DNA of 63,443 bases, the filler included, from Craspedostauros australis (taxonomy: Eukaryota), in the NCBI GenBank assembly GCA_030167865.1. It is 12 parts of 12 records of this genome, joined end to end, with 100 filler letters (N's around TTAATTAATTAA, not from the genome) between each part and the next. Parts side by side here need not be neighbours in the genome. Positions count along the whole stretch, not along the records: positions 18,759 to 33,209 come from JALAGF010006223.1; 11 more parts are not named here. One strand, 5' to 3'. Made by a program: the position numbers and the translations under genes. This document shows positions 10,535 to 48,965 of this stretch, in pieces. The notes below the pieces were generated by a model that did not search any database, had not been told where the DNA came from, and saw only the letters and a list, made by a program, of their open reading frames with translations. The number at the start of each line of letters is the position of its first letter. Position 1 is the stretch's first letter.

Positions 10535-11396
10535 TGTCGAGTTGTACATGTGAGTATACGTCAAGATGTACGTGTATATGTGCATCGTTCACCCGTTATT
10601 CTCTCATACACACTTGGACGGTATAANNNNNNNNNNNNNNNNNNNNNNNNNNNNNNNNNNNNNNNNNNNNNNNNNNNNNNNNNNNNNNNNNNNNNNNNNN
10701 NNNNNNNNNNNNNNNNNNNNNNNNNNNNNNNNNNNNNNNNNNNNNNNNNNNNNNNNNNNNNNNNNNNNNNNNNNNNNNNNNNNNNNNNNNNNNNNNNNNN
10801 NNNNNNNNNNNNNNNNNNNNNNNNNNNNNNNNNNNNNNNNNNNNNNNNNNNNNNNNNNNNNNNNNNNNNNNNNNNNNNNNNNNNNNNNNNNNNNNNNGAC
10901 CACTGCATCACCAATGGAACGTGACATCTGGAGAGCAGAAGGACACCTACTGACGTCGACAGGATGTCAACATGTCACCACATCGACAGCTGTCTCCAAG
11001 TCAGAGCAGGAGGCGAAGATACGATGACCCATGANNNNNNNNNNNNNNNNNNNNNNNNNNNNNNNNNNNNNNNNNNNNNNNNNNNNNNNNNNNNNNNNNN
11101 NNNNNNNNNNNNGAATGCGGAGCACGCATCGAACACGGAGTATCGTGTAGCACGAGCACACGATGGTGAGAGAGAGAGAGAGAGAATACAGAGAGGAGCG
11201 AGAGAGCATCTCGCGTACCGACTCATAGTCGAAGATTGAATCTACGAAACAGATTGAAGCGCCGAGAGCATCGGGCAAGAGAACAGGCGTACACCGAGAG
11301 CATCTGAGTAGCCAACTAATGAAATAGCAAACGAACGACTATCAACCACCACCATCTTCCACGATCGTAGGTTACCGTGAGCGGAACTTGCCAACA
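10535..11396 (+). repeat. Family A 3' LTR preceded by polypurine tract AGGAAGGG (10527-10534)
   Basis: Begins TGTCGAG directly after the PPT, ends GCCAACA; homologous to 28875-29659, 39165-39934 and 49546-50928(-). Confidence 0.92.
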
Positions 11397-14300
11397 CTAC
11401 GGCGTCTCCAGCCGATACTACGAGAAAGACGCGGAGTGCGATATGCACGGAATCGGCCAGGGCAACGGCGCAGGCCCAGCGATCTGGGCCGTCATCAGCT
11501 CGGTGATGTTCAAGGCCATGACCCGACTGGGGCACACGTCGTCGCTGGTCACTCCGTCAGGAGAGTATATACCCATCCTGGGGTCGGCCTTTGTCGACGA
11601 CACGGACTTAATCAGAATCCAACGACCGCAGCGAAATGACGCCGATGTCTCCAGCTTCCGAAGGACGGTTCAAGACTGGAGCCGCCTCCTCCAAGTCACA
11701 GGAGGAGCTCTGGTGCCGGAAAAATCAGCCTGGTGGGCCACGCAGCCAGAGTTCGTCAAGGACAAATGGGTGTGGAGCGATAGCGAGACTTCGGTAACCA
11801 TCAGCATTGACGATGGCCGAGGAGGAAGCGCCGTGATCCCGAGCAGGACAATGTCACAACCAGTGTTCACACTGGGGGTGTTTATCTCGTTCGATGGGAA
11901 CAACGAGGAACAAATTCAGGTCTTGCGGAAGAAAGCAGAAGACTTCGGCGGAAGGATGCGTATGGCGCAGATCTCCACGGACGACGCGCGGTCGGCTCTC
12001 ACCCTGCGGTTCATGAAATCCATCGAGTACGTCATGCCAGTTGTCCAGCTCACTCCACTTCAGTGGCGATACATCATGGCCCCAGCCCTGCTGGCAGCCC
12101 TGCCAAAAATGGGATGCTCGTGGACTCTGCCCCGGGACTTAGTGTATGGCACGAAATCGCTCGGCGGTTTGGGCATAGTACACCCCGTGAACTTCCAGCT
12201 GATGGCGCAAATCCAGCTGGCTTTCGACGAGGTACACCGAGGTACTCAGACGGGCAAGATGATTATCTGCTCTATACAAGCACTCAAGGAAGAGCTGGGG
12301 ATAGGAGGATCCCTGTTCCAACACTCGTACTCCCGAATGGGGCATTGTGCAACCAGGTGCTGGGTGTCCGGTCTGTGGAACCAGCTTCAGGGAACTGGCA
12401 TCGAAGTGTGCGAATTCACTTCGTCTTGGAAACCCCAACGGCGAGGCGATGCTTTCCTCATGGATCTATGGGTCCAACAGCATGTGAAGGGAGCACAGTT
12501 CTATCACCTGAACATGGTCCGCCACAAGATGGGGGTGATGCGGATGTCGGATATCGTTTCCGCGGATGGCACCAGAATAATGCCTGAAGCGCACGATGGC
12601 ACTCTGACTTCTGAAATGCCACAGCGATGGGCACGACAACCCGAACGGCTCCCCAGTGGCTGGTGGAAGGAATGGCAACAATGGTGCAAGTCGATGTGCT
12701 TTCGAGGCCTGCTTTTGAACAAGCCCCTTGGAAGGTGGCAGAGAGAGGACGGGACATGGCGTTGGTGGAAGGCACCATACCAGGACGACATTTTCGATCT
12801 GGACGCTGATCCAGTCCTTCGCTACCGACCTCTCCCACGACGGCGCACCCGTTGCCAGCAGTACTCTCTGGCCACGCCTGCTACCGACGTCCCAGCCGGC
12901 CTCAAACGAGTCTCTGTTGTTTACACTGAACAGGGCATCGAATGGGACGGTCATATCGGACTGACATGCCCTCCTGAGGAGCCAGCTCCTGCATACGAGC
13001 CCATCGAAAACATGCGAGGGACCATCCCCTTACAGGAGGTGGCACTGGCCGCGAACAGGGGCAATTTGGTGCTGGTGAGCGACGGTTCGTTCAAGGACCA
13101 GCGGGGCACGTCGGCATCGATCGCATACGATGTCCAGACCAGGGAGTATGTCTACTGCCAGACGTTCGTCCCAGGGCCGCCAGAGGTCCAGAGCGCCTAC
13201 AGAAGCGAGCTCGCCGGAATCTGGGCGTCCCTTGCAATGGTGGCAGAGCTCCCCGGACTACAGGACGACTGTACCATCACCATAGCTCTTGACGGTAAGC
13301 AGGCGCTCCTGCAAGCTCAAGAGGACTACCTGCGGCCACACCAGCGGCACTGGGACATCCTCACAGAGATCCAACAGCTCCGACGTGGCATCAAAGCCAC
13401 CCTGAAGTGGGAATGGGTGAAAGGCCATCAGGACGACACAGGCAAGAAACTAACGCTGTTGGAACGGCTCAACGTGGAGGCGGACGCAAAAGCAAAACAG
13501 TTCTGGTCCGACACGGGCTCCAGACCACACGTGAAAACCTGGGTGACCGCCACAGGTCGATGGAGGCTCCGCCTACGTGACGCCGACCATTCTCACGTGG
13601 ATCCCGAGGCAATGAACGAGCTCCTTCAGACGGCATCAGCAATGAAGTACTGGTCCACCAAATTTCAGTGGAATCAGAACCAGGTTCGCCAGATCGATTG
13701 GCGAGTGTACAAGATGGCCCAGCAGTCCAAGCTGAACCGTGGGACTGCTCGTTTCATCTCCAAGTGGGCTTCCGGCTTTGTGGTGGTCAACCACAAACTC
13801 CATCAGACAGGTCAACTACAGACGCCGAAGTGCAAGTTCTGCAACAGCGACGAGACCACTCAACATGTTCTACGGTGCCCGGAGCATCATGAAGCATGGA
13901 CCGAGGCTACTTCCGGCCTCATTGATCGCATGGTGACGATTGGAACAGCCCCACGGCTGGTCCAACGCATGCGAGTTGGCCTCGTGAAATGGAGACGGAA
14001 CACTCGGTCCACCGATGTGCAAAGTGAAATTGGGTGGTACCCTCTCATGCTAGGGTTTCTCCATGAGGACTGGGCTCTCCATCAGGCCCGCTGGATGACA
14101 ACGCATGAGTGCCGGTACCCAGACGCCAACTCTTGGGCTAGGGAGGTCGTGCGGTGGATCTGGAAAATCCCCTGGGAAATATGGTTGGCATGGAATGCGA
14201 AAGTGCACGACGAAGAACAGCATCCTACGGTGCAGGACTTGCGGCGCAAGGTTCGCCGAATGATGCAGGGTGCAAGTCAGGATATGAACGAAGCAGAGAT

Positions 14301-14574
14301 GCGGCTGTTCTGGGAAGGGCGCCATGTCGAACATGGCACCGAGGTTCAAATGCAGCAGTGGGTGAACTCTATGATAGCCGTTCACGCAGCGGTGAGAGCG
14401 CGGCGTCGATCGTGGTCAATGCACGCCGAGAGGCGGGCGTTGGCGGCTTGGTTGGGTCTGTCATAGTCGAACAACACACGACAGCTCGCTCAAAGCACGG
14501 TCCTACGGGGCCTGCGGCGGCGAGGGTAAAGCCTTATGGCACATTTCTAATGTAATCATTGAGTTATTTATTTA
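11397..14574 (+). mobile_element. Non-LTR retrotransposon (Ambal-like) ORF2 3' part: RT, RNase H, CCHC finger, 3' UTR and TTA-rich tail; 5' part cut off by the Copia A LTR
   Basis: GIGQGNGAGPAIW and AFVDDTDL RT motifs; LVSDGSFK, SAYRSELAGI, WVKGHQD, NVEADAKAK RNase H; CKFC...ETTQHVLRC; ORF open to 14466. Confidence 0.92.
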
Positions 14575-16252: not shown

Positions 16253-18651
16253 TTAAGTTGCATCACCACGGCTCTGTCGTGCAGCCCTCCCACGGGTCGT
16301 CATCCCAGTAGTAGTCGGCTTTCTTCGTGCTTTCTCTTTGTCATTATGCTGGTGCTCTGATTGTTGGTCTCCTATTGCTTGTTCTGCCATTGTGGGATTA
16401 TTCGTGGTTGCTTCCGCCGTTGTTGTTGGTACTGTTGCAACCTGCGGCGGCTGTTGGATACTTCCTTCTGTTGTCTCTCCTCTTGCATCATCTTTTGGGA
16501 CTGATTCAGTTGATGCCAAAGTTGCACTTGGCGATGGCATCTGGACTCCACCTGTTTCGGCTCCTCTTGTTGACACCGGTGATGGCAAGATCACCACCTC
16601 CGTTTGGGCATCTGTTCGTGTTGTATGCTGCACACCGCCTGCCTGGGATGGCAGGATCCGTTGGGGTGATCCTGCTGTTGCCATCTCGTCTGGCCATGCC
16701 CTTATTCTTCCAATTTCTGAGACTTTGGAACGTCTGGCTGCTGGTGATTGTGGTGGTGGCATTGTCTGTGTCTCCGTTTGGGCATCTGTTCGTGTTGTTT
16801 GCAGCTCACCGCCTGCCTGGGCTGGTAGGATCCGTTGGGGCGATCCCACTACAGCAATCACCTCTTCTGATGCCCGTTCTCCTCCACTGTCCAAGACTTC
16901 TGAACGTCTGGCTGCTGGTGATTGTGGTGGTGTCATTGTCTGCATCTCCGTTCGGGCATCTGTTCGTGTTGTTTGCTGTGCACCGCCTGCCTGGGCTGGT
17001 AGGATCCGTCGAGGTGATCCTGCTGTTGCCATCTCGTCTGGCCATGCCCGTCCTCCTCCACTGTCCAAGACTTCCGAACGTCTGGCTGCTGGTGATTGTG
17101 GTGGTGGCATTGTCTGTGTCTCTGTTCGGGCATCTGTTCGTGTTGTATGCTGCACACCGCCTGCCTGGGATGGCAGGATCCGTTGGGGCGATCCTGCTGT
17201 TGCCATCTCGTCTGGCCATGCCCGTCCTCCTCCACTGTCCAAGACTTCCGAACGTCTGGCTGCTGGTGATTGTGGTGGTGACATTGTCTGTGTCTCTGTT
17301 CGGGCATCTGTTCGTGTTGTATGCTGCACACCGCCTGCCTGGGATGGCAGGATCCGTTGGGGCGANNNNNNNNNNNNNNNNNNNNNNNNNNNNNNNNNNN
17401 NNNNNNNNNNNNNNNTGGCCATGCCCGTCCTCCTCCACTGTCCAAGACTTCCGAACGTCTGGCTGCTGGTGATTGTGGTGGTGGCATTGTCTGTGTCTCT
17501 GTTCGGGCATCTGTTCGTGTTGTATGCTGCACACCGCCTGCCTGGGATGGCAGGATCCGTTGGGGCGATCCTGCTGTTGCCATCTCGTCTGGCCATGCCC
17601 GTCCTCCTCCACTGTCCAAGACTTCTGAACGTCTGGCTGCTGGTGATTGTGGTGGTGGCATTGTCTGTGTCTCCGTTCGGGCATCTGTTCGCGTTGTTTG
17701 CTGTGCACCGCCTGCCTGGGCTGGTAGGATCCGTTCGAGCGATGGGTGAATGCGACTGCTCTGGCTTCTTTCGTCCATAGCAGNGCGACNGTNTGTGTNC
17801 TGGTCTGCNCTGNCTCTCNCANNTGCTGCTNCTGGATCTTNACCACCTGATCTGCTTGCCAAGTGGCCAGCAGCATCAACCAATGCCGCATCGAGGGAGA
17901 TATCCTCATGCTCCCACCATCTGTTGGCATTTTGAGAGACGTTCACATTGATGTTGGGGCCACCTGCTGGGGCCACTTCGATGGCAAGGCGGGGCTTCTT
18001 TCTTGGTCCACTTGCTTCATTGTTGTCTGCCAACAGCCTGGGTCTCTGTTGCAAGGCGTCCTCCCGTGCCCGGATTATGCGCTTTTCCTCCACCTTGAGA
18101 GCCAGCTCAGCCTCCATCATCTCAAGTGCTACCCGCTTGATCTCAATACGGTCTCGTATTATGTCGGTACTGTCCGTAAATACCGACATGGTGTCGTCAG
18201 TGGCAGTCCGGGTTGCTGGCTGATGACTGATTGCAGAAACCCTGGGCGTGGCTTGTTGGCTGTGCAGCCTTGGCGGCGTTGCTGATGGTAGTGGTCCGGT
18301 CTTGTTGCTTGCAAGGCTTTGTGCTGCTGGGATGTGGCTGTGGCCTCCTGGCTTGGTGGTGGGCGTGGGTATTGCAGGTGTTGTGCTGTAGCCAGCAGCA
18401 TTTCCTGTGGTGTCCACTGTCTTGCTCACCGTGCTTGTCAATGTGTTGTTGATATTGTGGGTGGTGATGTCAGTGGTGCAACTTTGTGTGTTAGTGACTT
18501 CACCACGGACACCCGGATGGCTTCCATCACCATCTGCAAAGCCGAGACCATGGCATACAGAAAAGTGCCGGGTCACACCCACGTTGGTTGCTTCCTTCAA
18601 ACGTACCGTTATTGTGAGGATGTTGTGAGTGGCGCCATCATTGTCCTTCAC
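16253..18651 (-). CDS. Long low-complexity protein with a coiled coil and 58-aa tandem repeats (partial; frame changes only across an N gap)
   Basis: ORFs 16933-18651 and 16253-17596 read the same repeat on either side of the gap; coiled coil IRDRIEIKRVALEMMEAELALKVEEKR; NLS-like PRKKPRL. Confidence 0.55.
16599..17735. repeat. 174-bp tandem repeat, at least 6 units
   Basis: Unit anchor TCCGTT(T/C)GGGCATCTGTTCGTG recurs at 16599, 16773, 16947, 17121, 17295 and twice after the gap. Confidence 0.95.
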
Positions 18652-18758
18652 AGCATGANNNNNNNNNNNNNNNNNNNNNNNNNNNNNNNNNNNNNNNNNN
18701 NNTTAATTAATTAANNNNNNNNNNNNNNNNNNNNNNNNNNNNNNNNNNNNNNNNNNNN

Positions 18759-19250
18759 ATACTGTACAGTGCGATGCGAACTGCACACTCCCGGCCCGCG
18801 TAGTGCTGGGGAATATCAGCATCTGCACATATCGATCATTTCCGTACAGATCTAGGACCCCAAACTCCAGGATCGTACTCTTTGGAATGTGCTTGGAGTG
18901 GAAAAAGCGTTGGATTGGTATGTGATCGAAATTTTCTGCGTACATGTGCTCAGAACATCGTATAGCTGGATGTGCAACGATCAGTGCTGCATGATATTTA
19001 CATTTGCAGATTTCGATCCCTTCCTGGCGGATCCATGACTTCAAACTCCATGTTCGGATTCTATGTGGCACGCTTGGAGTGGTGTGGTTGGTCGGATCTC
19101 TCAAAACAGCCTGTGGAATGCATAGATACTTGGAGTAGAGTACAGCATCATGTGTGCCGCACAGTATCACAAGATCCATAGATTTGGATACCAGCACTTC
19201 TTCAAGAAGGATCCAGATCCTCCCAAGCCACCCCCGTGCCCATTGAAGCG
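18759..19250. repeat. Degenerate ~180-195 bp tandem repeat (same family as 33310-33885)
   Basis: GCTTGGAGT anchors at 18891 and 19072; shared blocks ATATCAGCATC, CGTACTCTT, GGATCTCT.AAAAC.GCCTGTG.AATGCA. Confidence 0.6.
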
Positions 19251-20138
19251 CCGTCGCAATGATGGGATTGGTAGAATTTTAAATGTTGGGTCTTTCATAT
19301 GAAGGTTTGGGTAAAGCTCTGCACACCGCACACAGTCACTGTGCGGTATCACATGATGTGATCGCGTATAATCTGCAACACCTTCTAGCTGGATCCAGTC
19401 ACTTGCANNNNNNNNNNNNNNNNNNNGGAATGCCCTCGATGCGCCGATCTTGTTAGAATGTAGTATTTTATCCTTTTCAATGAAGGTTTGGTCAGAATAC
19501 GATCCACAACGCAACGAGGTGGAGCAAACAGGTGGATTATGCACATACCAACAAACTAAAGTAGTAATTATCCCTTAATTAGATGTTATATATTCGTATG
19601 GACTNNNNNNNNNNNNNNNNNNNNNNNNNNNNNNNNNNNNNNNNNNNNNNNNNNCACCGCACACAGTCACTGTGCGGTATCACATGATGTGATCGCGTAT
19701 AATCTGCAACACCTTCTAGCTGGATCCAGTCACTTGCACGCTGGATTTATACCCATGGGAATGCCCTCGATGCGCCGATCTTGTTAGAATGTAGTATTTT
19801 ATCCTTTTCAATGAAGGTTTGGTCAGAATACGATCCACAACGCAANNNNNNNNNNNNNNNNNNNNNNNNNNNNNNNNNNNNNNNNNNNNNNNNNNNNNNN
19901 NNNNNNNNNNNNNNNNNNNNNNNNNNNNNNNNNNNNNNNNNNNNNNNNNNNNNNNNNNNNNNNNNNNNNNNNNNNNNNNNNNNNGTACTTTTCCTGTGTG
20001 GTGTAGTTAGTCTATATTTATATACTAACCTTCCAAGTCGATGGGAAACCTCTGTGTCCATGAGATGTCGTATGGACATCTGGACATTTTGAGCCACTAA
20101 ATAGTGTCAAAACAGGCTGGTTGGTGGAAATCGGCACT

Positions 20139-20753
20139 TCAAAAGGGCTGGTTCGTGAATTTCCTCCTATTTTTGGTAGAGAGCTGAGTCATGGTGACAT
20201 GCGCCTTGTCTCTACCTACGTGATGCAACCGGATCAGGTCCATGTCGCTCTTGACCACAGTGTAATTGCTTTCCTCCTGTAGACGGGCACGCATTGCATT
20301 AGTGCACTGGCCCCACACAACGGAGTATATCTTCTGCATGCCATCTTCAAGCTTCTCCTTTCTGTCCTCATACTTGCTGTATTGTTTCTTCCATTTTTCC
20401 TTTTGGGTGGTGGTGGCAGTTGCCGCATAGTCAGCTGGCTCTGCGATGATTGGTGCTTTGAGAGTTTCGACAGCGTGTGCCACTCTGGGTCCGTACATGG
20501 TGCCAGCAAAGACTTGGATGGCATCGATGGTCTGTTTGAAGTCTTCCACTTGTTTGGTTTGGGAGGTCACACAGTCAAAGATCATCCCTTTGAGCTTGGG
20601 GCATGCGCCCTCGAACTTGGGGGCCTTGGCGAATGGGGAGCGCCCCTTGTTGTTGTTGTAGTTGTAGTTGTAGTTGTAGTTGTAGTTGTAGTTGTTGTTG
20701 CCGCCTTCACCTTTTGGCTTGATCGGCTTGGTCTTGATGTTGTCGCTCATCAT
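20139..20753 (-). pseudogene. Copia family B (CoDi-like) gag N-terminus, truncated near 20230
   Basis: KFEGACPKLKGMIFDC...YSVVWGQCTNAMRARL, typical of diatom copia Gag; starts 30 bp after the LTR; contains a (GTTGTA)n microsatellite encoding NY repeats. Confidence 0.85.
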
Positions 20754-20783
20754 TACAATGAAGCAGCAATCCAGTTTAAAATA

Positions 20784-21071
20784 TGTTGAGACAATGACTC
20801 CTACACCGGCCTCTACCTGGCGATGCACCAATGGGCAAACCAGATGAGGAGCGATGAGATTGTTGTTGTGGTGTAATCAGATATTTTAAACTGGATTTAT
20901 GGCTGCTTGTTGTTGATGTCCAGTTTGTTGTTGTTTTTCTTGTGTTTGCTTGCTTGGTGCTGGTGGTGGCTGCCAGCCATTGAGTTGCAACGATGAATGA
21001 TGTCATTGGCATTTCCTGGTTTCTTTGGTTTCGTGCCATCTGTCGTCACAATTTGGGCATCTGCTCCAACA
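20784..21071 (-). repeat. Family B 5' LTR (288 bp)
   Basis: TGTTG...CAACA termini; about 97% identical to 28466-28754; followed on the minus strand by gag. Confidence 0.95.
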
Positions 21072-22025
21072 GGGGCACTGACTCAAGCATGCGAACAAAG
21101 GTCTGGCATCCATGACATCTTCGAAAATGGGAGCTCACAGGTGTTCGCACTTTTCAATCACACGCAGATGGGCGCGACCAAAAGAGAGTTCCGTCTCATG
21201 GCTCCTGCTTCGATGGTGTAAAAATCTGCGTCGCAGAGTACCGATGGTGGCGAAGGAGGTCGCACTCTCATTGGGAATTGCTTCTCCGTCTTGGTGTCAA
21301 CGATTGCCAGAGATTGTCACTTCCGATGTGGCACCGAAGCATCGAACAGAATCGAACACCATCAGTCAGATTCCAAGATAACCACGGAGAGTACTTCAAC
21401 CCATGCAAGCGCAACGTGCCAAGTTCACGACGACGGAACTTCATCGGGTGCTTCTGGAAGCTGCAAGCCATCATTTGTTCTGCAACAACTCAACACAGCA
21501 TTACGAGGACACGCTCGAGCTGGATGACATCTGCTGCGATCTTCTGCGTGTCCAAACTCCAGGGTGCGACCACGTCTCGAAAGTACCATGCAACGTGATG
21601 CGAAGGTGACTCTTTCGGAGAGCTTTACTTCTGATCCATCGTCGGGAAGCTGTCGAAGAGCAGTGGAGCAGTTGTCAGAAGTCTTTGGGCGACCCGCCCA
21701 GTGATGAGACTAGTACTTCATCGAACGCTTCTGGAAACCTCGCTGCACCCCAAGATTCTGCATCAACGCAGCACTGTGTTGCAAACTCGGAGCATGTGCG
21801 ATCTGATGCGATCTTGTGCGTGTTTGAATTGGCGTGCGACCATGTCTTGAAGGTGTACTGGAATGCAACAGGAGTGCAGCAACGTGCTCCACACATTCTC
21901 CAACCATGCTCTCACAAATCCCAAACTCAAACAAGTTGTGGAGCTGGGAAAGCCACAAGCTCACATCCTCAAGCAAACATAATTCTCATTCAGCTCTTGA
22001 CAAACAATTCGAAAACGTAAGTACG

Positions 22026-23987
22026 ATGCCGCCAAAAAAGAATGAACAGTTCATGAGTCTCAGCGGTGGTGGAGTCGTTCTCGAGGAGATCGAAGAGGAG
22101 GAAGAGGATGCAAGTGATGATGAGGAGGATATCCGACAACAGATCAGCGACGAGAAGAAGAAGGGGGCCAAAGCAAGAGTGGACCTCGATGAAAGCATCA
22201 AGGCAGCCCAAAAGCTGATGGAGGAATGTAAGTCAGACACAACCAACAATCTACCTACTGAACTACTTTCTCAATGCAACACTGAGATCAGCAATTGCAG
22301 TGAACAACTCGACAATGCCACCAAATCCCGCGAGGAACTTGCCGCAAAGTTGCGTCGATGCCGACTGAAGCGTCGCATGAGAGAATCTAGTATCAAGGAC
22401 GTGCTGGGCAAACTCGATGCTGTGGAGAACGAAATTGATCTCGTGTTCATCATGGACGCTACTGGTTCAATGGGGCCATACATCGACGGTGCCAAGCAGA
22501 CCATCCGCAAGATTGTCGAGAAGATCAAGGCTGATGGAAAGGGGAAGGATCTACGGTTGGGGTTCGTGGCCTACCGAGAGATTTACAATGGATCTGATCG
22601 ATATCAAGTACTTGATTTCGTGGATGAAGTCAGTGTCTTCGAACGCTTCCTGGAGGGAGTCAAGCCCATTGGCAACTACGACATTGCAGAAGACATGGCA
22701 GTTGGCATCCAAAAGGCCAATGGGCTCTCCTGGATGCACCCCACCAGAGTCGCCTTCATTGTTGGCGATTGTGCATGTCATGGAACCGAATTCCACGATT
22801 ACAGTAAGTCTGACGACAACTACCCGACCGGCACTCCAGGCATCAACATCGTCTCGGAGCTATCCAAACTCAGGACCAATCCATCGGGTGGAACCATGAC
22901 CGTCTTCTTTGGTCGCATCACCAGCCTAACGGACAAGATGATTGAGCGGTTTGCGTCCGTCCACAACATTGATCTCGAGGTTGTGGACTTCTCTTCTCCC
23001 GAAATGGTTGAGAAAGTCGTGGTCAAGAGCGTCCGCCACTCTGTCTTCAACTCGGTGTCGTTGATCGACTCTCAGAGCAAGTCAGTGGAGTACGAAGCAG
23101 ACAGAGGGAAGATGAAGAAGGCCAAGATGAAACCATACACAATCTCCAAAGAATTTCCAACGCACCTTGGATGGAAAGCAACAGTGCCTGTCAACGTGTA
23201 CTGCAACACCCGCAGCATCTCCGTCCAGTCTTTGCAAACGCCTCTCTCGGTCAACAAGTTGGCCGAAACCTACACTTCTCGGTCCGCTTTCGTGAAACGC
23301 GCCAACCTCGAGCTCCAGCTCCAACTGGCGAAATCCCCGTTTGCTGAGGGGTCATGCCGCATTGCATTCCATGCAAGGCTGGCGCGTTGCGTTGCCGAAC
23401 TCAACCTCAACAAGAACGCCATGGTGCTCAAGACCAACAAGCACCATGGGCCAGGAATCAACGATAGACAACGATACTTCCAGCAGATGGAGGTATCATC
23501 CATCGCGTGCTTCCTTGCCAACGAATACAACAAGTCAGCCCTCCGTCCTTCGCATTGTGCCAAGATCAAGGTTCTGCAAGCGTGCGTGGTGGAGGAGGTC
23601 AGCGACGAAAATGAAGCAGACGGAAACCGTTTCTACTGCGGTGAAGACGTGCTGCCAACCACCGGAACGCCATTCACCAAGTACTGCAGCAACACGGGAG
23701 CCTGGAATCCCGATCACATCGATGAGTCGCTCCTTCGCTTCGTGGAGTTCTCGTACGTCTTCTCCAAGAAGTACTTGATCGTGGCGGATCTTCAAGGTGT
23801 CAAGGCCAATGGCAAGTACTACTTGACCGACCCTGCGATCTTGTGCACGGACATGAGACGCTTCGGCTGCACCAATCTGTGCACACCAGGAATCAAGCGT
23901 CACTTGGCATCAGTTCGAGACAAGCTCAAGATGTTCAAGAAGAAAGCTGGAAGCTCGGTCTCATGTGGCTGTTGGAGGCAAGGGTAA
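22026..23987 (+). CDS. Coiled-coil + vWA + alpha-kinase (eEF2K/MHCK family, VwkA-like architecture)
   Basis: vWA: IDLVFIMDATGSM, LRLGFVAYR, AFIVGDCACHG; alpha-kinase: PFAEGSCRIAF, FTKYCSNTG, IVADLQGV, YLTDPAI, FGCTNL. First ATG taken at 22026. Confidence 0.92.
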   Translation: MPPKKNEQFMSLSGGGVVLEEIEEEEEDASDDEEDIRQQISDEKKKGAKARVDLDESIKAAQKLMEECKSDTTNNLPTELLSQCNTEISNCSEQLDNATKSREELAAKLRRCRLKRRMRESSIKDVLGKLDAVENEIDLVFIMDATGSMGPYIDGAKQTIRKIVEKIKADGKGKDLRLGFVAYREIYNGSDRYQVLDFVDEVSVFERFLEGVKPIGNYDIAEDMAVGIQKANGLSWMHPTRVAFIVGDCACHGTEFHDYSKSDDNYPTGTPGINIVSELSKLRTNPSGGTMTVFFGRITSLTDKMIERFASVHNIDLEVVDFSSPEMVEKVVVKSVRHSVFNSVSLIDSQSKSVEYEADRGKMKKAKMKPYTISKEFPTHLGWKATVPVNVYCNTRSISVQSLQTPLSVNKLAETYTSRSAFVKRANLELQLQLAKSPFAEGSCRIAFHARLARCVAELNLNKNAMVLKTNKHHGPGINDRQRYFQQMEVSSIACFLANEYNKSALRPSHCAKIKVLQACVVEEVSDENEADGNRFYCGEDVLPTTGTPFTKYCSNTGAWNPDHIDESLLRFVEFSYVFSKKYLIVADLQGVKANGKYYLTDPAILCTDMRRFGCTNLCTPGIKRHLASVRDKLKMFKKKAGSSVSCGCWRQG

Positions 23988-24524
23988 AGCCTACAGGGCA
24001 CATCTCTGATGCAATCCTTGAGTCGTTGTCAAGATTTTCAATTCGAAAGAGTGAGGCACTTCTGTCTGTTCCAAGTGCAGAAGAGAAGGGCAGGCGCATG
24101 GTGCTCATCATACTTGTACAGCATCTAACGGCATCCGACGAAGCTGCTATCTCCATTCACAACACAAGAGAACACGTTGGTGGCACACCCCTTATGACAT
24201 CCAACACTTCACCACATACATTACATGACTATTATACATGACGACATGATGTCAATACACATGATGGAAAAGGCGATGTCTCTTAGTTCGCCTTCCATGC
24301 CCACCATAACGATTATACACACCGTACACATACTTAGTACACCGATAATCAACCAGCCAATCAACGAAATAGCTTCTATTCAACAGAGTACATGGAGAGC
24401 AACTACGATTGAGTCAAACGAACCAGCCTTGCTTGCACAAATGCGCATGTAGGTGTGGTCATCCATCCACTCTACTATAGTGACACGCGCAACGTCGCGA
24501 TCCACCGTCGTCCAACACCCTGCC

Positions 24525-25382
24525 TCACAGCTCGTCGTAGTCCATGGATTTCATGAACAGCGTCACCCTCTCTTGCAGCGCATGCATGGACGGGCTCGTT
24601 AATCGCTCCACGAACATCCCATCTGCACTGAGCAGATACATCGTCACCCGATCCAGATTGAGGTTCGATTGCACATGCTGCATTGTTCCATCCGCCCGCG
24701 TTAGAACGGATGCCGTTCCCGATGTTGGATTGACGTCGAGCAGGTACCGAATCATGGCGTTTCTCGTGGCATCGTTGATCTCTTGCAGCACGTGCACATG
24801 TGGTGGATCGTGCAGCACGAGGTGGATACCGCCCTCCACTCCGACGTCGACGGGCAGAAGGACGATCTCGAGGCTCGGTCGAAAGCTGGAATGCAGATGC
24901 TCCAACAGCTCGTAGTAGTATGCCGCCATGCCGGGGATGAGGGGAACGATCGCGACAATGACGACGTATCCTTCCAGATCCTCCATCTGCATGAGTTTTG
25001 AGTTTGTGGGACGTTGCAGTCGGACCGACGGCAGGTCGTAGAAGGCGGATGCATCGGAGGCCTTGCCATTCATGCGCGGCTGTTCCAATTGTTGCGTGCA
25101 TGTCGCTGCGCATTCCACGAAGATGTTGGCGAAGATGTCCGACCAGCACACATCGATGATGTCCGCACAATCGTCACGTGTGTCCTTGTCGAATGTGCCG
25201 AACGGCGAAGAGCGGATGGAGTCCACGAACTTCTGCAGTTCGGACTTGGGCTTTGTTGGTAATGTTGGTGGTGCCTCGTTGGATGCGCCCTTCGCTTCAT
25301 CCGTTGTCGGAGCGCAGGATACCAACGACACCAGGTGCATCAGTGCGCAGAAAAGGATGATGGTATGCAGCGAAGAGCACAT
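24525..25382 (-). CDS. Secretory protein: signal peptide, partial ShK-like Cys motif, glutathione-peroxidase-like thioredoxin fold without catalytic Cys, C-terminal YDEL
   Basis: MCSSLHTIILFCALMHLVSLVSC signal; DDC...C...CAATC; SAFYDL...LEGYVVIVAIV...YYELLEHL...LEIVLLP and YLLSADG..VER follow the GPx pattern. Confidence 0.75.
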   Translation of the reverse strand: MCSSLHTIILFCALMHLVSLVSCAPTTDEAKGASNEAPPTLPTKPKSELQKFVDSIRSSPFGTFDKDTRDDCADIIDVCWSDIFANIFVECAATCTQQLEQPRMNGKASDASAFYDLPSVRLQRPTNSKLMQMEDLEGYVVIVAIVPLIPGMAAYYYELLEHLHSSFRPSLEIVLLPVDVGVEGGIHLVLHDPPHVHVLQEINDATRNAMIRYLLDVNPTSGTASVLTRADGTMQHVQSNLNLDRVTMYLLSADGMFVERLTSPSMHALQERVTLFMKSMDYDEL

Positions 25383-26264
25383 CGCGTCAAAGTGGAGTAC
25401 TGGTACTATACTGCGATGTTTGTGTATGGCACGAGTGTTGGGGAGAGAATTGATGTTGGCGTGTTGGTGTGGACAACTCCAGAGAGTTGGTTGGTTGTGC
25501 GCCTTTGGAGGTCTCGCTGTGTTTCGCACTGTCACTCCTGCTTCCGTCCATGACTGCTGCCGAGGCCCATGCCCATGATGGCTACGGGCTATTCCGATTG
25601 CTTCCTCCGTGAATGGTCGCTGTTGTGAATGGTCGCCATTGAAGATCGCTGTTGATGTCATCCTCCCTTCCTTGTTTGTGACAATCCGAAAGTCACCAAA
25701 ACAGAGAGGACAACAGGTCGAAATGACTCTGTGCAACACGTTCAGCATCTCTTTGTTCTTCACGGTTGTGTTGCCGTTGGTTGTCATGGTTGGCAGGCTC
25801 GTTTCTCGCGTCACGTTCCTTCTTCAGACACGATTGACCATCGAAATGAATTGCCAAATAAATACAATTAGCGTCGGAGAGTTCGGGGTTTGAAATTTGA
25901 ATTTGCTTTTTGGGACAAGATCGTTACAACACATCTCTGGCAACAGGAAAACAGACATCATCTCAATTCTCTCGCACATCCACCACCACCATTGCCATCG
26001 CCGCCACTGCCACCACCACCGCTCGACAACAACAAGAACAATGAAAACAACGCCAAGAACAACACGAGCAGCCCTGTGTGGAGCATCACTCTCACCACCT
26101 TCGCCGCCGCAACCATACCTCATAGTCAACGAATCTGGAGCACCAGCTGTACCCATACCCAATCACTTCGCAAGGCTGCATCATCTTTCCGCGACACCAA
26201 AGCACTCCGTTCCCCGACTCTTCTCTGCGCTAACCATCTCTCCGTCACTTTCCACTCTCCGTCA

Positions 26265-27784
26265 ATGGTAACCATGGTCCAACGAATTGCCAAGCGCCAA
26301 TCCAACTTGGACTCCATCTCGGAGACCAAGCAACTCATCACGAACGATGATGCGATGAAGAATGTCATGACATCAGATGCCGTCCCGAAGATCTCACCAA
26401 CGGCGACCGATACCGCAGGCAACGGAGGCTTCATCATCACGCCATCCAGTTCTACATCCAGCCCCAACTCGAGCGACAGCGACGACGACACGGGTGGCCA
26501 TGATGCAACGGTGACACGAGCGCGCAGATCACTGTTCGTCCCCGTTCGAAAGGCCGTCCCAAGCTCGGCGAAGGAGGACGAAGCAGCTGCATCCAGGAAG
26601 CCCCGCCAACACCAAAGGGAGCCAAGACCGAAGCCCAGACTCCAGGTTCCTCCGTCATCACACCAGACCGCAGAAGTAAGCGCAAGCTGTGGCTCGATCC
26701 GGACGACGATGATGCCAGCGCAGACGCCACGCAGCCCGCACCGAAGCGCCGTCTGCTGTTCGGATGCATGGCCAAGTCGACCTACTGCCAACCAAATGTC
26801 AAGAGCGTCTACTCCATCGTCAAGAAGCTGACGGGTGCCATCGGTGGCAACGGATACTCTGGGCCCATCTACGGTGAGCTCACCATGGCATCCATGCAAA
26901 AAATGATCAATCACATGATGGAGTACGCCGAGCTCGACTCCTCCAGCCGTTTCCTCGACGTCGGCAGCGGCATCGGCAAGCCCAACCTGCACGTCGCGCA
27001 GTATCCCGGAGTCGAATTCAGCTGCGGTGCGGAACTGGAACACGTGCGCTGGAATTTGGGCATGGTCTGCCTCAAGGCTATCCTGAATCGCGCCATGGAT
27101 CAGCGTGACGATCCGGATTTCGACCGATTGACCGACGAAGAGATCGTCAAGGGCAACACCACATTCCTACATCGCAACATCATGGAGGCCAATTCCTTCG
27201 ATCTCTTCACGCACGTGTACATGTTCAGCATTGGAAAGTCGACGTGTGCGCAGCTTTTGTGGGTTGATTATGTGTGTGATCTGCATGTGGCATGGTAGTG
27301 TCACACTCACTCACCCACTCACTCACTCGACGCATCATCCATAACAACAAAACAAACAACAATACAAATAGGCTTCCCACCGGACCTATGGGATCACCTT
27401 TCGAACATGTGGAACACGAGCTCCGCCAAGTACCTCGTCTGCTACTTGAATCCACGCGATCTCATCGAAACCTACGACTTCGACGTCGAGATGGTGTCCC
27501 GCATGCCAACTTCCATGCATGGCTCGAAGGAGGGGCATCTGGGATACGTCTACAAGGGCGTCCATGCGAGGGAAGCAGGCAACAAATCCCACGGCCGTCG
27601 ACGTGCCAACGCAAACAGCAACAGTGGCAACCGACGAGTCAAGTGCGACCCCATCTTCCAAGAGGCCTACGACCTGGTCTGCGATGGTTTGGAGCCTTTG
27701 CACAAGGCAGTGGCACTGCAAACCAACTCGACCATGAACTCGGGCCGCAGGACTCGTTTGCGCGGAATGAAGCTGACGCGATGA
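26265..27784 (+). CDS. DOT1: DOT1-like histone H3K79 methyltransferase, two exons (intron 27234-27371), with an apparent frameshift near 26601 and a GA splice donor; possibly a pseudogene
   Basis: IYGELT, FLDVGSGIGKP (SAM motif I), GAELEHVR, THVYMFSIG|FPP; exon 2 continues in frame after AG at 27371. Confidence 0.8.
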
Positions 27785-28465
27785 ACGCGATTGATCCGGG
27801 CGCTCATTTGGGAGAGATGAGAGAGAGGAGAAATGCACCCATTGCAGTGTAGGTGCACGAGCATGTCACCAGGCCGCGCCGTGCGTAAGTGTTGGACGAT
27901 GTCGCGATGACAGTGGGTGTGACGACGGCAGCAATCATGGCTGTGATCTGTGAAGGATAGTGCAATAGAACCGCAAAAGGGAATCATATGTACATCAGTG
28001 CAAGGTGCACCATAACACACACAGCAACACAGCAGGCTGCAGCATGACGACACATGGGACGTAGCAAGCGGCATCGGCCACAATGCGGAGACTGCTACGC
28101 TGCAAACCTAACTCGCTTTCTGCTCTCGCACTGTAAGATGGCATGTTGTTTGTATGAGTAGTAGTATGCAATCAATTCGAGCGACACTGGATTGAAGAGA
28201 GAGAGAGAGAGAACTTCGACTTGATTCTCTTGTCTTCCCTTCCGAACGTGTTGGCTCTCCCGGGTGAGTATGGCCGCCTGTGCCGTTCCATTTTTCGCGC
28301 ATCACACGCATTCGGACGATCCAGCCATACCCAACCACAAAATACCTCCTCGCACGACGTCCACCAACCGCCGGCCCTGGATTGAGACGACCTCTCTGAG
28401 GTCTCCTCGTATCTCCGCTTGTGCAAACACCAATGCCTGGAGTGGGATTCAGGGTTGATTGGGGC

Positions 28466-28874
28466 TGTTGAGACCATGACTCCTACACCGTCCTCTACCC
28501 GGCAATGAACCGATGGGCAAACCAGATGAGGAGCGATGAGATTGTTGTTGTGGTGTAATCAGATATTTTAAACTGGATTTATGGCTGCTTGTTGTTGATG
28601 TCCAGTTTGTTGTTGTTTTTCTTGTGTTTGCTTGCTTGGTGCTGGTGGTGGCTGCCAGCCGTTGAGTTGCAACGATGAATGATGTCATTGGCATTTCCTG
28701 GTTTCTTTGGTTTCGTGCCATCTGTCGTCACAAATTTGGGCATCTGCTCCAACACACTCCTTCGGTCCAAGCAGAGCTTGCTTGTATGTCTATGTCTTAC
28801 CTTTGCTGGGACCGCTGATTTTTCGGTTGAGGATGATGTCGTGGAACTTGCGGAACCTTGTCCCCTGCAGTGGC
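28466..28874 (-). mobile_element. Family B 3' end: 3' LTR (28466-28754), PPT GAAGGAGTG and 120 bp of internal sequence, interrupted by Copia A
   Basis: LTR matches 20784-21071; purine tract abuts TGTTGG on the minus strand. Confidence 0.9.
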
Positions 28875-31800
28875 TGCCGAGATGTACATGTGAGTATATG
28901 TCAAGATGTACGTGTATATGTGCATCGTTCACCCGCTATTCTCTCATACGTACTTGGACGGTATAACTACACTCGTGTAGATAGTATGTTGTGATTCGTC
29001 AGAATTACAGTGGAAATGGAACACACGAAAAGGAGCAAGATTTCTGGAGGAAATTTGCAATCGACGATTTCTGAGAGAATTGGAAGATCGTCCGTNNNNN
29101 NNNNNNNNNNNNNNNNNNNNNNNNNNNNNNNNNNNNNNNNNNNNNNNNNNNNNNNNNNNNNNNNNNNNNNNNNNNNNNNNNNNNNNNNNNNNNNNNNNNN
29201 NNNNNNNNNNNNNNNNNNNNNNNNNNNNNNNNNNNNNNNNNNNNNNNNNNNNNNNNNNNNNNGTCAGAGCAGGAGGCGAAGATCCGATGACCGAAGGGCA
29301 TCAGCATCATGGATACAGAAGGTGAACTTCAAATGGCGAGTACTCACGGAGTAGGAACCAGTACTGAATGAACGGAGTGTCGAATACGGAGTACGTATCG
29401 AACACGGAGTATCGTGTGCGACGAGCACACGATGTTGAGAGATAGAGAATACGAAGAGTGGCGAGAGAGGATCTCGCGTACCGACTCATAGTCGGAGACT
29501 GAATCTACGAAACAGACAAACGTGCCAAGAGCATCGGGCAAGAGAACGGGCGTACACTGAGAGGATCGGAGTAGCCAAGAAATGAAATAGCAAACAGACG
29601 ACTATCAACCAACACCATCTTCCACGATCGTAGGTTACCGTGAGCGGAATTTGCCAACACGTTTATAAACGATAGATCAGGGCGAGCCCATGGATCGGAT
29701 TGTGCGAGGAAGACGAACATCATTCAAGAGCAGCAGGCTGAATGAGCGAGGAAGAGGAATTGAAAGACATCCCTCTGTCCAACCTGACTATCAAGAGACA
29801 AGAAGGTGCAAGTGAGACTCCACCATGACAAGAGAAGGAAGTAGCAGCGGCTACTGTTCTATCAAGCGCAGACGCAAGCGCAATCGACGAGACCGAAGAG
29901 GAATGGTTTGCGAGACTACATCGCGAGGAGAAGAGCATTCTCAAGGCGAGCAAGCAAGAGGAGACTGGTGTGACGGAGAGCATTCGCACAGCCAAACAGG
30001 GTGAGAAAAGTGAGACACCATCAGGAGGAGAAATTGTGAGGAAAACAATCTCCGCTAAACAACTAGCGAAAATCGAAGAAACAACAACACAGAAACAAAC
30101 GGAAATCAAGGGCGCGAGCGCACCAACAACGAAACAACAAGTCAACATGGCGACATCAGCCAACACGAACAAGCAACACATCAAGGCGCCGATGTTCAGC
30201 AGTGAACATGAAGACTACAGCGCATGGGAGTCCCAAGCGAAGGCATACGCTCATGCACAGAAGACGAGAGACGTGATGTTGGGCAAGACGAAGATCCCAA
30301 CAATGAGCGAGATCGCAGCAGCCACCCAAGAAGACAAGGAGGCACTGGAGGAGACCCACAAGCTGGCATGCGACTGCTTCAGCGATCTGATCCTCATGAT
30401 GGATGCAGAGAAAGGAAAGGGCAAGTAGGCCATCCAATACATCAATCGGTGCATCTCCGACGATTATCCCGAAGGAGATCCACATGCAGCGTGGAACGTT
30501 CTCGCGGAGAAGTTCCGCCCATCTGACGCGGTGACGAAGATCAAACTCAAGTGTCAATTCAACAACAAAAATATGAAGAGAGACACAGACCCTGACATCT
30601 ACATCACGCGACTCGAGGGTCTACGATCGCGTCTCCACGACGTCAAGTACGAGATCACAGACGAGGAAATGATCATGCAAATCCTCAGCACGGTGAGTAG
30701 CGAATACAAAACGCACATCGTGAACTTCCAACATCAACTCACGTTCAATCCGGAACTGGTCACCATCAATGTGATCAGAGGAGTACTCTGCACAGCACAC
30801 GCCACCCATCAAGGAGGAAAGGCGTACATCGACGATTTCCAAGACAGCAACACGAAAAGCAACGACACCGGCCTCACGAGCACTGGTAACTTCAAGGGGA
30901 CCTGCCACAACTGTGGTGTGTATGGTCATAGATCCGCCGATTGCCCAGAACGCGAGAAACCGAACAACAAGAAAAACAACAACAACAATAACAACAACAA
31001 ACTGAACGGAAAGCGCAACAAGGGAAGCAGCTTCAACGGAAAGTGCAACTACTGTGGCATCTTCAGACACCGTGAGGCAGAGTGCCGAAAGAAGAAGTTC
31101 AACGAGAAGAAGAAGGCCGACGAACAGGCCAACACAGCAACACAAGGACACGACAAGAGCGGGCACGAGATGGTACTCTCGGCAAAGGACATGCCGCTCT
31201 GCATATTGGTGTCCGACGACTACATCGAAGACTCCTTCTTCGATAACTTCGAGTGCGTCGGGAGTGACGACGAAGTACAGAACGATGAGATCGTCCTGGA
31301 GTGGCTCAGCGAGGAGCCAATCATCCACGAGGTGGATCCAAGACGCGAAGTGAGCTACGAATGCTGCTTCAACGCAAACAACCTGATCGGTTCATACGGC
31401 GACGGAGCCGAGATGGGCAACGAGGCCATCGATAGCGACATCGAAGAGGCCATGAGTGAAGAGGCCGACGATGAGATCAACGAGAATGACAGAGACCGAG
31501 ACGAGACGAACGGCGGCGCGGCACCGCCTCCTCCAGCGGCGGGGAACAACAGATCGGGCATCTTCGATGAAGATGACAGCGACGAAACCGAAGACCATCC
31601 AGACGGCAGCTTCAACCCAAACAAGCGTGTCGTCTACCCAGGGAATATCGACTTCCCACCGATTGAGAATCCCAACGACTCAAACTACCTCCATCATCAT
31701 GATACCATTCCATACGCAACGGAAACAGCATTGATAATCCAGAAGCAGCTCATCTTCGATGCCGTGATGGAAGCAGGAACGAACCTCTTCCCAGGACACG

Positions 31801-33209
31801 TACAAGGAGTGCTCAGACCGATATGGGTGAACATGATGGGATCCATCCTATCCGAGAACTTCAGATCAATCGAAGAGATTCTCGCCAATTCGGTCGTCAT
31901 CAACCGCATATTGGAAGCGGACAATACGGAGACGATCCCAGAGACGGATCTGCACTACATCCTTGGAGGATGCATGCGTGTGCTCTTACGCGAGCGATCA
32001 CGCGTCCACCCATACGATCCAGCCACAGGATCACATCGAAGCAACACGATTCCATCGGACTACGCGCAACTACCCGACAACATGGATGACGAGGAACGTC
32101 ACAATCCATACAACGAAGATGGAGTTCACGAAGATGAAGAGGAAGACGGCAGCTTCAACGACGAGATAGCTGCGGCAGCTGTGGAGCAACTCCACGAGCT
32201 GAGCACCAGACACAAGGACAAGGTCAACAAGGACACTTGGCTCGCCGACAGTGGAGCTTCGTGTCACATCGTCAATTCAGACGCCGCTCTCTTCAACGTG
32301 CGGCACATCAAGTCATTCGTCCAAGTGGGAGACAGNNNNNNNNNNNNNNNNNNNNNNNNNNNNNNNNNNNNNNNNNNNNNNNNNNNNNNNNNNNNNNNNN
32401 NNNNNNTCATCCGGCTCGATGACGTGAAGTACACACCGAAAATGGCGGTGAACCTTTTCTCCACGAACAAGGCTCTGTACAACGGTTACCAGCTTGGTAG
32501 CAACAGCATTCTGATGGACATCATCAACGGATCCGGAACGAAGATCGTGTTCGATCGAGTCTTCCCCACATCCAACGGATTCATCACGGGAGTGCAGATG
32601 CATCCCATCATGCCAACAGACGACGACAAGGCTTGCACAGCCATCGTCAAGAACCCATCCAAGGAGATCAGCGTGGTGAGCTTGCATCGAATGCTCGGCC
32701 ACGCGCCACTCGAAGCCATGAAGCGAACAGCCGCTCAATACGGATGGAAGATCACTGGCGAGATGCCGGTATGTCGCGACTGCGCGGTCGCGAACGCAAG
32801 AGTAAAGAACATCTCGAAGGCAACGATTCCAAGAGCGACTCGCCGCGGCGAACGCCTCTTCATTGACATTCGTTACACTAAACACATAAGCTTCGGAGAT
32901 AAACGCTACTGGACCCTGATCGTGGACGACTGCACGGATCACTGCTGGAGTTTCTTNNNNNNNNNNNNNNNNNNNNNNNNNNNNNNNNNNNNNNNNNNNN
33001 NNNNNNNNNNNNNNNNNNNNNNNNNNNNNNNNNNNNNNNNNNNNNNNNNNGACAACAGCGGAGAGAACAAATCCACGCAGGATATTCTCATCGATGCAGG
33101 ACTGAACGTGAAATTCGAATTCACAGCATCGAACACGCCGCAACAGAACGGCAGAGTAGAACGCAAGTTCGCGTACCTCTACACCAAGATCCGCTCCATG
33201 CTCAACGGA
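28875..33209 (+). mobile_element. Copia family A 5' half: 5' LTR (28875-29659) and gag-protease-integrase from 29742, with premature stops at 29826 and 30426
   Basis: Two CCHC knuckles (CHNCGVYGHRSADC, CNYCGIFRHREAEC); protease WLADSGASCH; HRMLGH...CRDC; DNSGEN; one reading frame throughout. Confidence 0.95.
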
Positions 33210-47752: not shown

Positions 47753-48965
47753 GGACACGTTGGACATGTTTGGGTTGATGGTTGGGAAGAGGGATGAGCC
47801 TGCGGGTGAGGGCAGTGGCAGAATCAGTGCCGTCATTAGTGCCGTCATCGACATGCTGATGTTGGATTCCCGAGTTGATCAATGTCTGAATGGACGGAAC
47901 AGTGACCATGAGGACTCCGGAGTTTGCTTTGATTGGCTGTTGTTCGTCGCCTTGTCCGCACAGGAAGGTGATGTCTGCCTTGGCCTCAGAACGAACAGCG
48001 CTGCGACGATCTTGGTCGATGCTGATGTTGGTTGTTGTGTGGATTTTAGGATTGTCGTGCTTGGTTGGTGTTGTGATGGTGTTTGTGTGGCTTTGCTTGT
48101 GCACCTGCGTCTCTGTTTGCAGCTGCGTCTGCAGTTGCAAGTTGCGTTGACTGAGATGACCGAGACGCTTCATGATTGATCTCATCATCTTGACCTGCTT
48201 GTTCGCAATGAATACATCGATGGGTGTTTTGATTTTGTTGTTTTGGATGTCGATATTGACCTTGGTTGATTCGATGAGGTATTTGACGCATTTAGAATTG
48301 CCACCGGCGCATGCATAGTGAAGTGGAGTGTTGCCATCGATGTTCTTGCAGTTGACATCGGCGTTGGTTGATCTGATGAGGTACTTGACACATTCAGAAC
48401 GGCCGTTGGCGCATGCCTCATGAAGGGGAGTGTTGCCATAGTTGTTCTTGCAGTTGACATCGGCGTTGGTTGATTCGATGAGGTACTTGACACATTCCAG
48501 GCTGCCGTTAGCGCATGCTCGATGAAGTGGAGTGTCGCCATCGTTGGCTTTGCAGTTGACATCGGCGTTGCATGTTTCGATGAGGTACTTGGCACACTCC
48601 AGGCTGCCTCTGACGCATGCCCCATGAAGTGGAGTGTAGCCATTGTTGGCTTTGCAGTTGACATCGGCGTTGCATGTTTCGATGAGGTACTTCACACACT
48701 CCAGGCTGCCTCTGACGCATGCCCCATGAAGTGGAGTGTAGCCATCGTTGTTCTTGCAGTTGACATCGGCGTTGGCTGATTCGATGAGGTACTTCACACA
48801 TTCCAGGCGGCCGTTGGCGCATGCCCAATGAAGGGGAGTCCAACCATAGCCGTCTTTGACCGTGTTGACATCACGTCCTTCGTTCTGCTCCTTCCATTCC
48901 TTCAACACCGACAGATCACCTGTCTTGGCAGCGTCAAGGAGTTGTTCGTCTGAGACATTCGGCAT
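47753..48965 (-). CDS. Ankyrin-repeat protein (6 near-identical 34-aa repeats) with a short coiled coil and the start of a BTB domain (3' truncated)
   Basis: GxTPLHxACxxGxLECVKYLIE x6 as 102-bp units; ADITFLCG...IKANSGVL...IPLPN resembles a BTB N-terminus. Confidence 0.9.

Follow-up and report, generated by a model that had tools for sequence, protein, structure and literature searches.

In the Schizosaccharomyces pombe retrotransposon Tf1, the mRNA's initial 11 bases are described as pairing with the primer binding site (PBS), and RNase H is reported to cut between bases 11 and 12 (PMC7175516). Self-priming has also been predicted by Neumann et al. for the plant TAR lineage of Ty1/copia, in an account that cites the proposal for Houba and Osr-1 as earlier and that uses as its criterion that the 5′ LTR should match, over 10 bp or more, the complement of a region starting 0–5 bp past the LTR (PMC6317226). 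The fungal GalEa Copia elements are described as having no tRNA PBS and as carrying a “conserved hairpin site” that includes the last A of the 5′ LTR (PMC5445492). In diatoms, the published description of the CoDi Copia groups gives elements of 5.2–8 kb with short TG...CA LTRs, found in ocean metagenomes as well (PMC2806351, Maumus et al. 2009).

The stretch of DNA analysed here (the window; 63,443 nucleotides, filler included, from the Craspedostauros australis assembly GCA_030167865.1) contains a locus that we consider, with good confidence, to be the 5′ end of a diatom-type Ty1/copia retrotransposon that, like Tf1, uses its own RNA to prime minus-strand synthesis. Rather than a single molecule, the window is a series of contigs linked by 44 N + TTAATTAATTAA + 44 N at 11 joints (e.g., 18659–18758), with many further scaffold gaps; distances across the joints carry no meaning. 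The piece with the element spans 18759–33209, and the part of it that holds both LTRs is free of gaps from 19985 to 29095. The features of the element, which we call family B, are collected in Table 1.

Table 1. Features of the family B element in the window, with positions counted along the whole stretch.
Feature	Position	Strand	Remarks
gag ORF P0001	20142..20753	−	204 codons; ATG at 20753
Predicted primer binding site	20768..20784	−	AUAUUUUAAACUGGAUU (sense); begins on the LTR-terminal A
5′ LTR	20784..21071	−	288 nt, TGTTGG...CTCAACA; ends set by aligning the second copy
R/U5 loop	20785..20880	−	96 nt between primer and PBS; internal stem-loop in the MFE fold
Predicted self-primer	20881..20897	−	LTR-internal 17-mer AAUCCAGUUUAAAAUAU (sense); exact complement of 20768–20784
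Bulge and extension	20898..20908	−	4-nt CAUA and 7-nt AAGCAGC; can pair with 20761–20767
GCCCC flank	21072..21076	−	5′ (sense) of the 5′ LTR; same pentamer at 28461–28465, 3′ of the second LTR
Second LTR	28466..28754	−	Read as the 3′ LTR; primer segment at 28563–28579
Polypurine-tract-like GAAGGAGUG	28755..28763	−	Immediately 5′ (sense) of the second LTR

Sense is on the minus strand, and the gag of the element accordingly lies downstream of the 5′ LTR at lower coordinates. The two LTR copies are 97.2% identical over 289 columns (blastn), and the second is read as the 3′ LTR because it is preceded, in the sense direction, by GAAGGAGTG, which resembles the polypurine tract (PPT) of relatives, and by a weak remnant of the pol C-terminus (28755–29095, E about 1.5e-4). 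The initial annotation had pointed to a 17-nt complement between the sequence at the LTR end and a segment within the LTR, and its coordinates proved exact to the base: the plus strand reads AATCCAGTTTAAAATAT at 20768–20784, and the exact reverse complement stands at 20881–20897, with the primer segment unchanged in the second LTR, as had also been claimed. Past the LTR end the sense strand reads TATTTTAAACTGGATT, which, in agreement with that annotation, does not begin with TGG. The further seven pairs that it had described are likewise present, 20761–20767 (AAGCAGC) pairing with 20902–20908 (GCTGCTT) beyond a 4-nt bulge at 20898–20901. This extension would require a transcript start upstream of 20908 and is private to the window copy; pairing past position 15–16 is unconserved in the 48 elements compared below. 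The window copy is off the family norm in two further respects, with a duplex of 17 nt against 15 and with CCATA at the place where relatives have CTCA.

Controls on the window sequence leave no role for chance in the complement at the junction. When the LTR and the sequence downstream of it were shuffled 5000 times, no junction-anchored complement exceeded 11 nt, a length reached in 2 shuffles, and among 12,486 mock junctions on both strands of the whole window, only 7 gave at least 13 nt, the real junction being one of these 7. The corresponding RNA (20915 to 20740) folds at −58.4 kcal/mol, compared with a mean of −36.6 in 200 shuffles (z = −5.6), none of which did as well. A search of 20600–21200 against Rfam returned only two CrcZ matches (13 and 11.5 bits) far below the gathering score of 95, which we take as noise, and ARAGORN found no tRNAs within the window.

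The gag ORF was used to collect relatives, and a search of 1.84 billion representative proteins at E ≤ 0.001 gave 1008 of them, the best being 35–39% identical; gag homology overall is in the range of 26–40% identity. An alignment of 31 of these gag sequences was run against metagenome contigs and gave 146 matching stretches, of which 121 could be confirmed; 79 loci were retained. In the long gag relatives, a zinc knuckle follows, with a protease-like motif and then a DDE-like region, and full-length loci encode single polyproteins of about 1600–1770 residues. One polyprotein has 214 relatives, and those with a named source belong to two diatoms, Fragilaria crotonensis and Fistulifera solaris, and to one MMETSP transcript. 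One further relative is labelled as a bacterial Marinobacter MAG, a row that we take as a mis-binned eukaryotic contig.

The Copia label given initially cannot be read on the window contig, where gag matches no Pfam family and pol is absent, but it is recovered through the relatives. RVT_2 (PF07727) was matched above the cut-off by all six polyproteins scanned (E 7e-11 to 2e-18), with about 240 residues following it. The 331 residues between protease and RT found no match in Pfam (E up to 1), NCBIfam or PDB sequences, and an AlphaFold model of this stretch (AF2 pLDDT 74) resembles retroviral integrases (Foldseek E about 1e-8, probability 1.00). With the integrase thus identified by fold alone, the domain order, gag, zinc knuckle, protease, integrase, RT and RNase H, is that of Ty1/copia; it is the RVT_2 RT with an integrase fold ahead of it in the relatives that leads to this assignment. 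A 5-bp target-site duplication, as in Ty1/copia, is present at one locus with both LTRs (L052), which has ATTAC on both sides. Membership of the clade in Copia is well supported by these data, and that of the window copy follows from gag homology. A Pfam scan of 12 gag relatives found zinc knuckles in 6, nothing in 5, and in 1 a weak match to Retrotrans_gag (E 3.7e-5), a mostly gypsy-type gag family; the gypsy reading that this single match might invite is ruled out by RVT_2 and the domain order.

If the LTR segment and the PBS belong together, relatives should differ in sequence at both while keeping them complementary, and the check for such covariation that had been proposed at the outset came out positive. 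Of the 79 loci, 12 were left out because the sequence available ahead of the conserved gag motif was shorter than 330 nt. The primer–PBS architecture is kept in 60 of the 67 loci that remained: 47 hold an exact inverted repeat of at least 12 nt (range 12–19, and exactly 15 nt in 30), 8 have the same layout with one or two mismatches, one of the mismatches being G:U, and in 5 loci of a long-leader subclade the site is found about 660–720 nt before the ATG. The loop between the arms of the 47 exact loci measures 88–134 nt, mostly 95–99, apart from one of 71 and one of 205, and the 3′ arm starts at the terminal A of ...TTCAACA, or one base later in 8 loci. The seven loci without the site include two that are cut by the contig end and one with the 5′ arm only, the others being apparently decayed, chimeric or very distant. 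As controls, 35 coding stretches taken from these loci all stayed below 10 nt, and among 66 shuffled upstream regions a single one attained 12 nt.

Pairs were counted in the 47 exact loci plus the window copy (n = 48), with positions anchored at the LTR end; a full MAFFT alignment of R/U5 from the 48 sequences misaligned several 5′ arms and was not used for the counts. Positions 2–15 are Watson–Crick pairs in 47–48 of 48 elements, with two to four pair types per position and no G:U, although the absence of G:U is partly circular in that the 47 loci were selected by exact Watson–Crick matching. The LTR-terminal A (position 1) pairs in 40 of 48, and position 16 in 12 of 48, which is about chance. 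There are 37 distinct PBS 15-mers among the 48 elements, and whereas the complement in an element's own LTR is 14–15 nt long in 46 of 48, matches across elements are mostly of 5–8 nt. RNAalifold, applied to a subset of 24 elements that have loops of 95–99 nt and were picked for their sound MAFFT alignment, independently predicts the 15-bp helix, in which 14 of the 15 pairs have undergone double changes and one-sided changes are absent, and in addition a U5 hairpin and a small GGUUU/AAACC helix. In the alignment of these 24 elements the share of paired cells is 97.7%; it is 70.3% in shuffles, none of 500 coming as high, and 38–47% when the partner is slid by one to three columns. The local U5 hairpin (alignment columns 77–97) shows double changes at 6 of 6 pairs in silico, and in these 24 elements both local helices have G:U intermediates, unlike the long-range helix.

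The anatomy of the relatives places this helix where a primer would be expected. Their LTR termini are TGTTG(G/A)...CAACA. In L052, two LTRs (TGTTGG...ACAACA) are flanked by the ATTAC duplication, and the A that closes the 5′ LTR is also the first base of the PBS; because the LTR pair and the duplication fix the LTR end, this start at the terminal A is proven. The start of the LTR was located in 41 of 48 elements, 28 of which have ...GGAGTG directly before TGTTG, the others having unrelated flanks. LTR length varies from 211 to 507 nt; the portion upstream of the 15-mer spans 90–382 nt, as against a steady 112 nt or so between the 15-mer and the LTR end. The base 5′ of the 15-mer is A in 42 of 48 and forms part of a CTCA consensus seen in 35–42 of 48, a motif that we take to resemble a pol II initiator (Inr-like). 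The 15-mer is therefore read as the likely start of R, since CTCA just upstream and a variable U3 against a constant R/U5 are both expected if it is. The gag ATG follows the PBS start by 16–48 nt in most loci, and in many it lies 1–5 nt past the 15-mer; with the ATG so close, there is no room for a second PBS before gag. Nor is there a conserved TGG motif after the PBS in the relatives.

Two variants of this layout deserve mention. Ten contigs of about 5.1–6.1 kb (L005, L016, L017, L023, L025, L027, L037, L041, L043 and L046) have their first 100–320 nt repeated at the end and read in the order pol end, PPT, one LTR, PBS and gag, and are thus circularly permuted, which is what collapsed LTR pairs, tandem arrays or one-LTR circles would be expected to give. 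In the long-leader subclade (L032, L049, L050, L051 and L053, and also L033 and L047), a leader of about 700 nt with tandem repeats and a conserved block separates the PBS from gag, and the CTCA–15-mer/PBS architecture is kept.

A self-priming reading in the manner of Tf1, as first put forward for this locus, draws its support from the position at the LTR end, the covariation in relatives and the lack of space for any other PBS. Under such a mechanism, transcription would start within the LTR at or just before the AU-rich segment, at about 20897–20900 in the window and after CTCA in the relatives, so that the 5′ end of the transcript is predicted at or beside 20881–20897. The first 15–17 nt of the RNA would then fold back in cis over the R/U5 loop, itself able to form a hairpin, and pair with the PBS from 20784. 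RNase H of the element would cut at the inner end of the duplex, beside 20881, leaving a 3′-OH that points into U5, although the exact cut site is ambiguous by one base because the LTR-terminal A is unpaired in 8 of 48 elements. Reverse transcriptase could extend this 3′-OH to give minus-strand strong-stop DNA, and plus-strand strong-stop synthesis, in copying the primer, would rewrite the PBS at each round, which would keep the arms Watson–Crick and their length equal to that of the primer. Such renewal by copying is suggested by the complementarity itself, which is perfect, free of G:U and sharply bounded.

What else might the helix be? The alternative that survives best, although we regard it as unlikely, is that it is a structure of the leader RNA, with a part in packaging, dimerisation, translation control or masking of the PBS, and that the primer is some other RNA derived from the element and acting in trans, such as this segment in the 3′ R of a second genomic RNA, or a short LTR transcript, in place of the folded-back 5′ end. 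Helices between U5 and the leader are common in retroelements, the loop holds further conserved helices, and the location within the LTR puts the segment near the 3′ end of every transcript too, with cis and trans pairing looking the same in the sequence data at hand. Against this, the helix starts exactly at the LTR end, where a minus-strand primer must sit, and gag follows too soon for another PBS. The pairing also stops sharply after 15 nt, beside the initiator-like motif, and is free of G:U, unlike the local helices, all of which fits a copied primer better than a structure that is merely selected. An RNA of the element acting in trans would, moreover, still amount to self-priming.

A host tRNA, tRNA half or other small RNA as the primer, with the LTR complement being incidental or regulatory, is much less credible and seems to us highly improbable. 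It has general precedent on its side, as most Ty1/copia elements are reported to prime with tRNA-Met or half-tRNAs (PMC6317226). Yet the PBS does not begin with TGG, and each of the 37 15-mers found among the 48 related elements matches its own LTR; with PBSs so specific to the element, a common host tRNA could hardly serve as primer. The PBS sequences are, besides, extremely AT-rich, presumably unlike a tRNA, which counts against such a primer as well. The notion that the inverted repeat is due to chance or to the assembly of a fragmented, gap-rich scaffold has a negligible claim, for although the window has many N gaps and there are duplicated stretches at nearby ones (19324–19845), the region of the LTR pair is uninterrupted, the shuffles and mock junctions contradict chance, and the same architecture recurs in 60 independent metagenome contigs.

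Compared with the systems described so far, the presumably self-primed element of the window is close in mechanism to Tf1 and Tf2 of Schizosaccharomyces pombe and the wider Tf1/sushi group, in which, as published, a PBS at the 5′ LTR complements LTR sequence located where the transcript begins (a start that is predicted here), with a U5 stem-loop between the two. The stem-loop inside the primer–PBS loop is seen here in silico, in the double changes at 6 of 6 pairs and in the window fold. Tf1 is a Ty3/gypsy chromovirus with the order protease, RT, RNase H and integrase, unlike the clade described here, which has an RVT_2 RT with the integrase before it; membership in the Tf1/sushi family was therefore rejected, the likeness being one of mechanism. 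The duplex is also longer, as the initial annotation had it, with 15 nt as the typical length and 17 in the window copy against 11 in Tf1, a comparison that sets sequence against published biochemistry and in which the private 7-bp extension has no part.

With TAR, Houba and Osr-1, as described, the element shares a Ty1/copia nature, a probable lack of a tRNA PBS and agreement with the in-silico criterion (PMC6317226): where that asks for at least 10 bp beginning 0–5 bp after the LTR, the window copy has 17 nt of exact complement from the last base of the LTR. The hosts differ, being diatoms or their relatives here and plants for TAR, and the comparison is with the published description; the lack of a Pfam rve match in the integrase suggests that the clade is distant from TAR. 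Like GalEa, as reported, this is a Copia element probably without a tRNA PBS and with a self-complementary site that involves the last A of the LTR, but the GalEa site is described as a local palindrome without a partner in the LTR, whereas here the partner is found 96 nt upstream inside the LTR (PMC5445492). With CoDi it has in common a diatom Ty1/copia nature, short TG...CA LTRs and occurrence in metagenomes, the comparison with CoDi1–7 being made by description alone. A self-priming suggestion for a CoDi element, which the initial annotation mentioned, could not be traced, the main text of the CoDi paper (PMC2806351) making no mention of tRNA or priming. Priming is not discussed in two further diatom genome papers either (one of them PMC7466962), and searches of open-access full texts found no report of self-priming in diatom retrotransposons. 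As a novelty, then, self-priming in Ty1/copia has to yield to the predictions already published for TAR, Houba and Osr-1, while the diatom case appears to be without precedent in the open-access literature. Taken together, the sequence comparisons support a new and well-documented addition to the self-primed LTR retrotransposons, a class already known, placed in a diatom Copia clade and probably using a 15-nt primer.

The value of the locus lies in a case, made at the level of sequence, for tRNA-independent priming in a whole Copia clade, with many independent contigs and unusually clean covariation. It yields predictions of where the transcript starts, where RNase H cuts and how R/U5 is structured, all of them directly testable in culturable diatoms. 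A more far-reaching reading, which we put forward tentatively and hold to be possible rather than probable, is that diatoms, and maybe other protists, harbour an old and extensive Copia clade that dropped tRNA primers entirely, that the first 15 nt of the capped transcript prime, and that each lineage has a private primer–PBS “code” which, with the PBS rewritten from the primer at each cycle, can drift freely. If this were true, such a code could insulate co-resident families from each other and from the supply of host tRNA, and it could facilitate horizontal transfer; alongside plant TAR and Tf1/sushi, the clade would mean that self-priming has arisen repeatedly, or is ancestral, in both LTR superfamilies. 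There are practical consequences too. LTRdigest seeks tRNA-type PBSs. A diatom genome annotation is described as having kept only LTR candidates with both a PPT and a PBS found by LTRdigest (PMC7466962), a filter that elements like the window copy would probably fail, such that the clade may be under-annotated. A possible detector for it would combine the PPT ...GGAGTG, an LTR of the form TGTTG...CAACA, and CTCA followed by 15 nt whose complement is at the LTR end. The clade also adds a data point to the debate, raised in PMC3601003, on whether self-priming came before tRNA priming.

The window copy itself is a dead fragment, with gag truncated or disrupted and pol absent. Likeness of P0001 to the relatives stops near residue 176–183, at about 20226, and a Pfam search with it found no family. 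No pol follows it in the contig and no second copy of it exists in the window; in tblastn with the relatives' polyproteins against the window, gag was the only family B match, and the remaining matches, at 20–30% identity, were to the Copia pol of a second family, A. A scaffold gap at 19846–19984 lies past gag, and just downstream of the truncated gag, within 19324–19845, stretches of 84 and 88 nt recur as exact copies, 331 nt apart, to either side of N gaps and seem to be duplications made in assembly at the gap margins.

The two LTRs are separated by 7.4 kb of host-like genes, among them those for an alpha-kinase/vWA protein and a DOT1-like methyltransferase, and the GCCCC copies sit on the inner sides of the LTR pair. 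The pair resembles the ends of one insertion turned inside out around this host segment. The assembler may have collapsed a tandem repeat of element plus host segment; a circular form, or mere coincidence (1 in 1024 for the pentamer), could also account for it.

Family A, a Copia family with a Retrotran_gag_2 gag, is also without a TGG-type PBS in the window. In both of its 5′ copies a perfect 12-nt palindrome, CGTTTATAAACG, stands directly after the LTR end (...TTGCCAACA), at 29660–29671 and at 39935–39946. As a second case of self-priming it was rejected, the longest LTR complement at the junction being 7 nt, and its palindrome is nearer to the published “conserved hairpin site” of GalEa than to Tf1. 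At 16517–17715 and 48135–48944, long open frames enclose tandem repeats of 174-nt and 102-nt period, which are unrelated to the family B element. On the plus strand, directly after a family A LTR, an open frame of 1031 codons (11371–14466) shows motifs like those of RT, along with weak similarity to RNase H that stays under the Pfam cut-off, and this frame is probably a different kind of retroelement.
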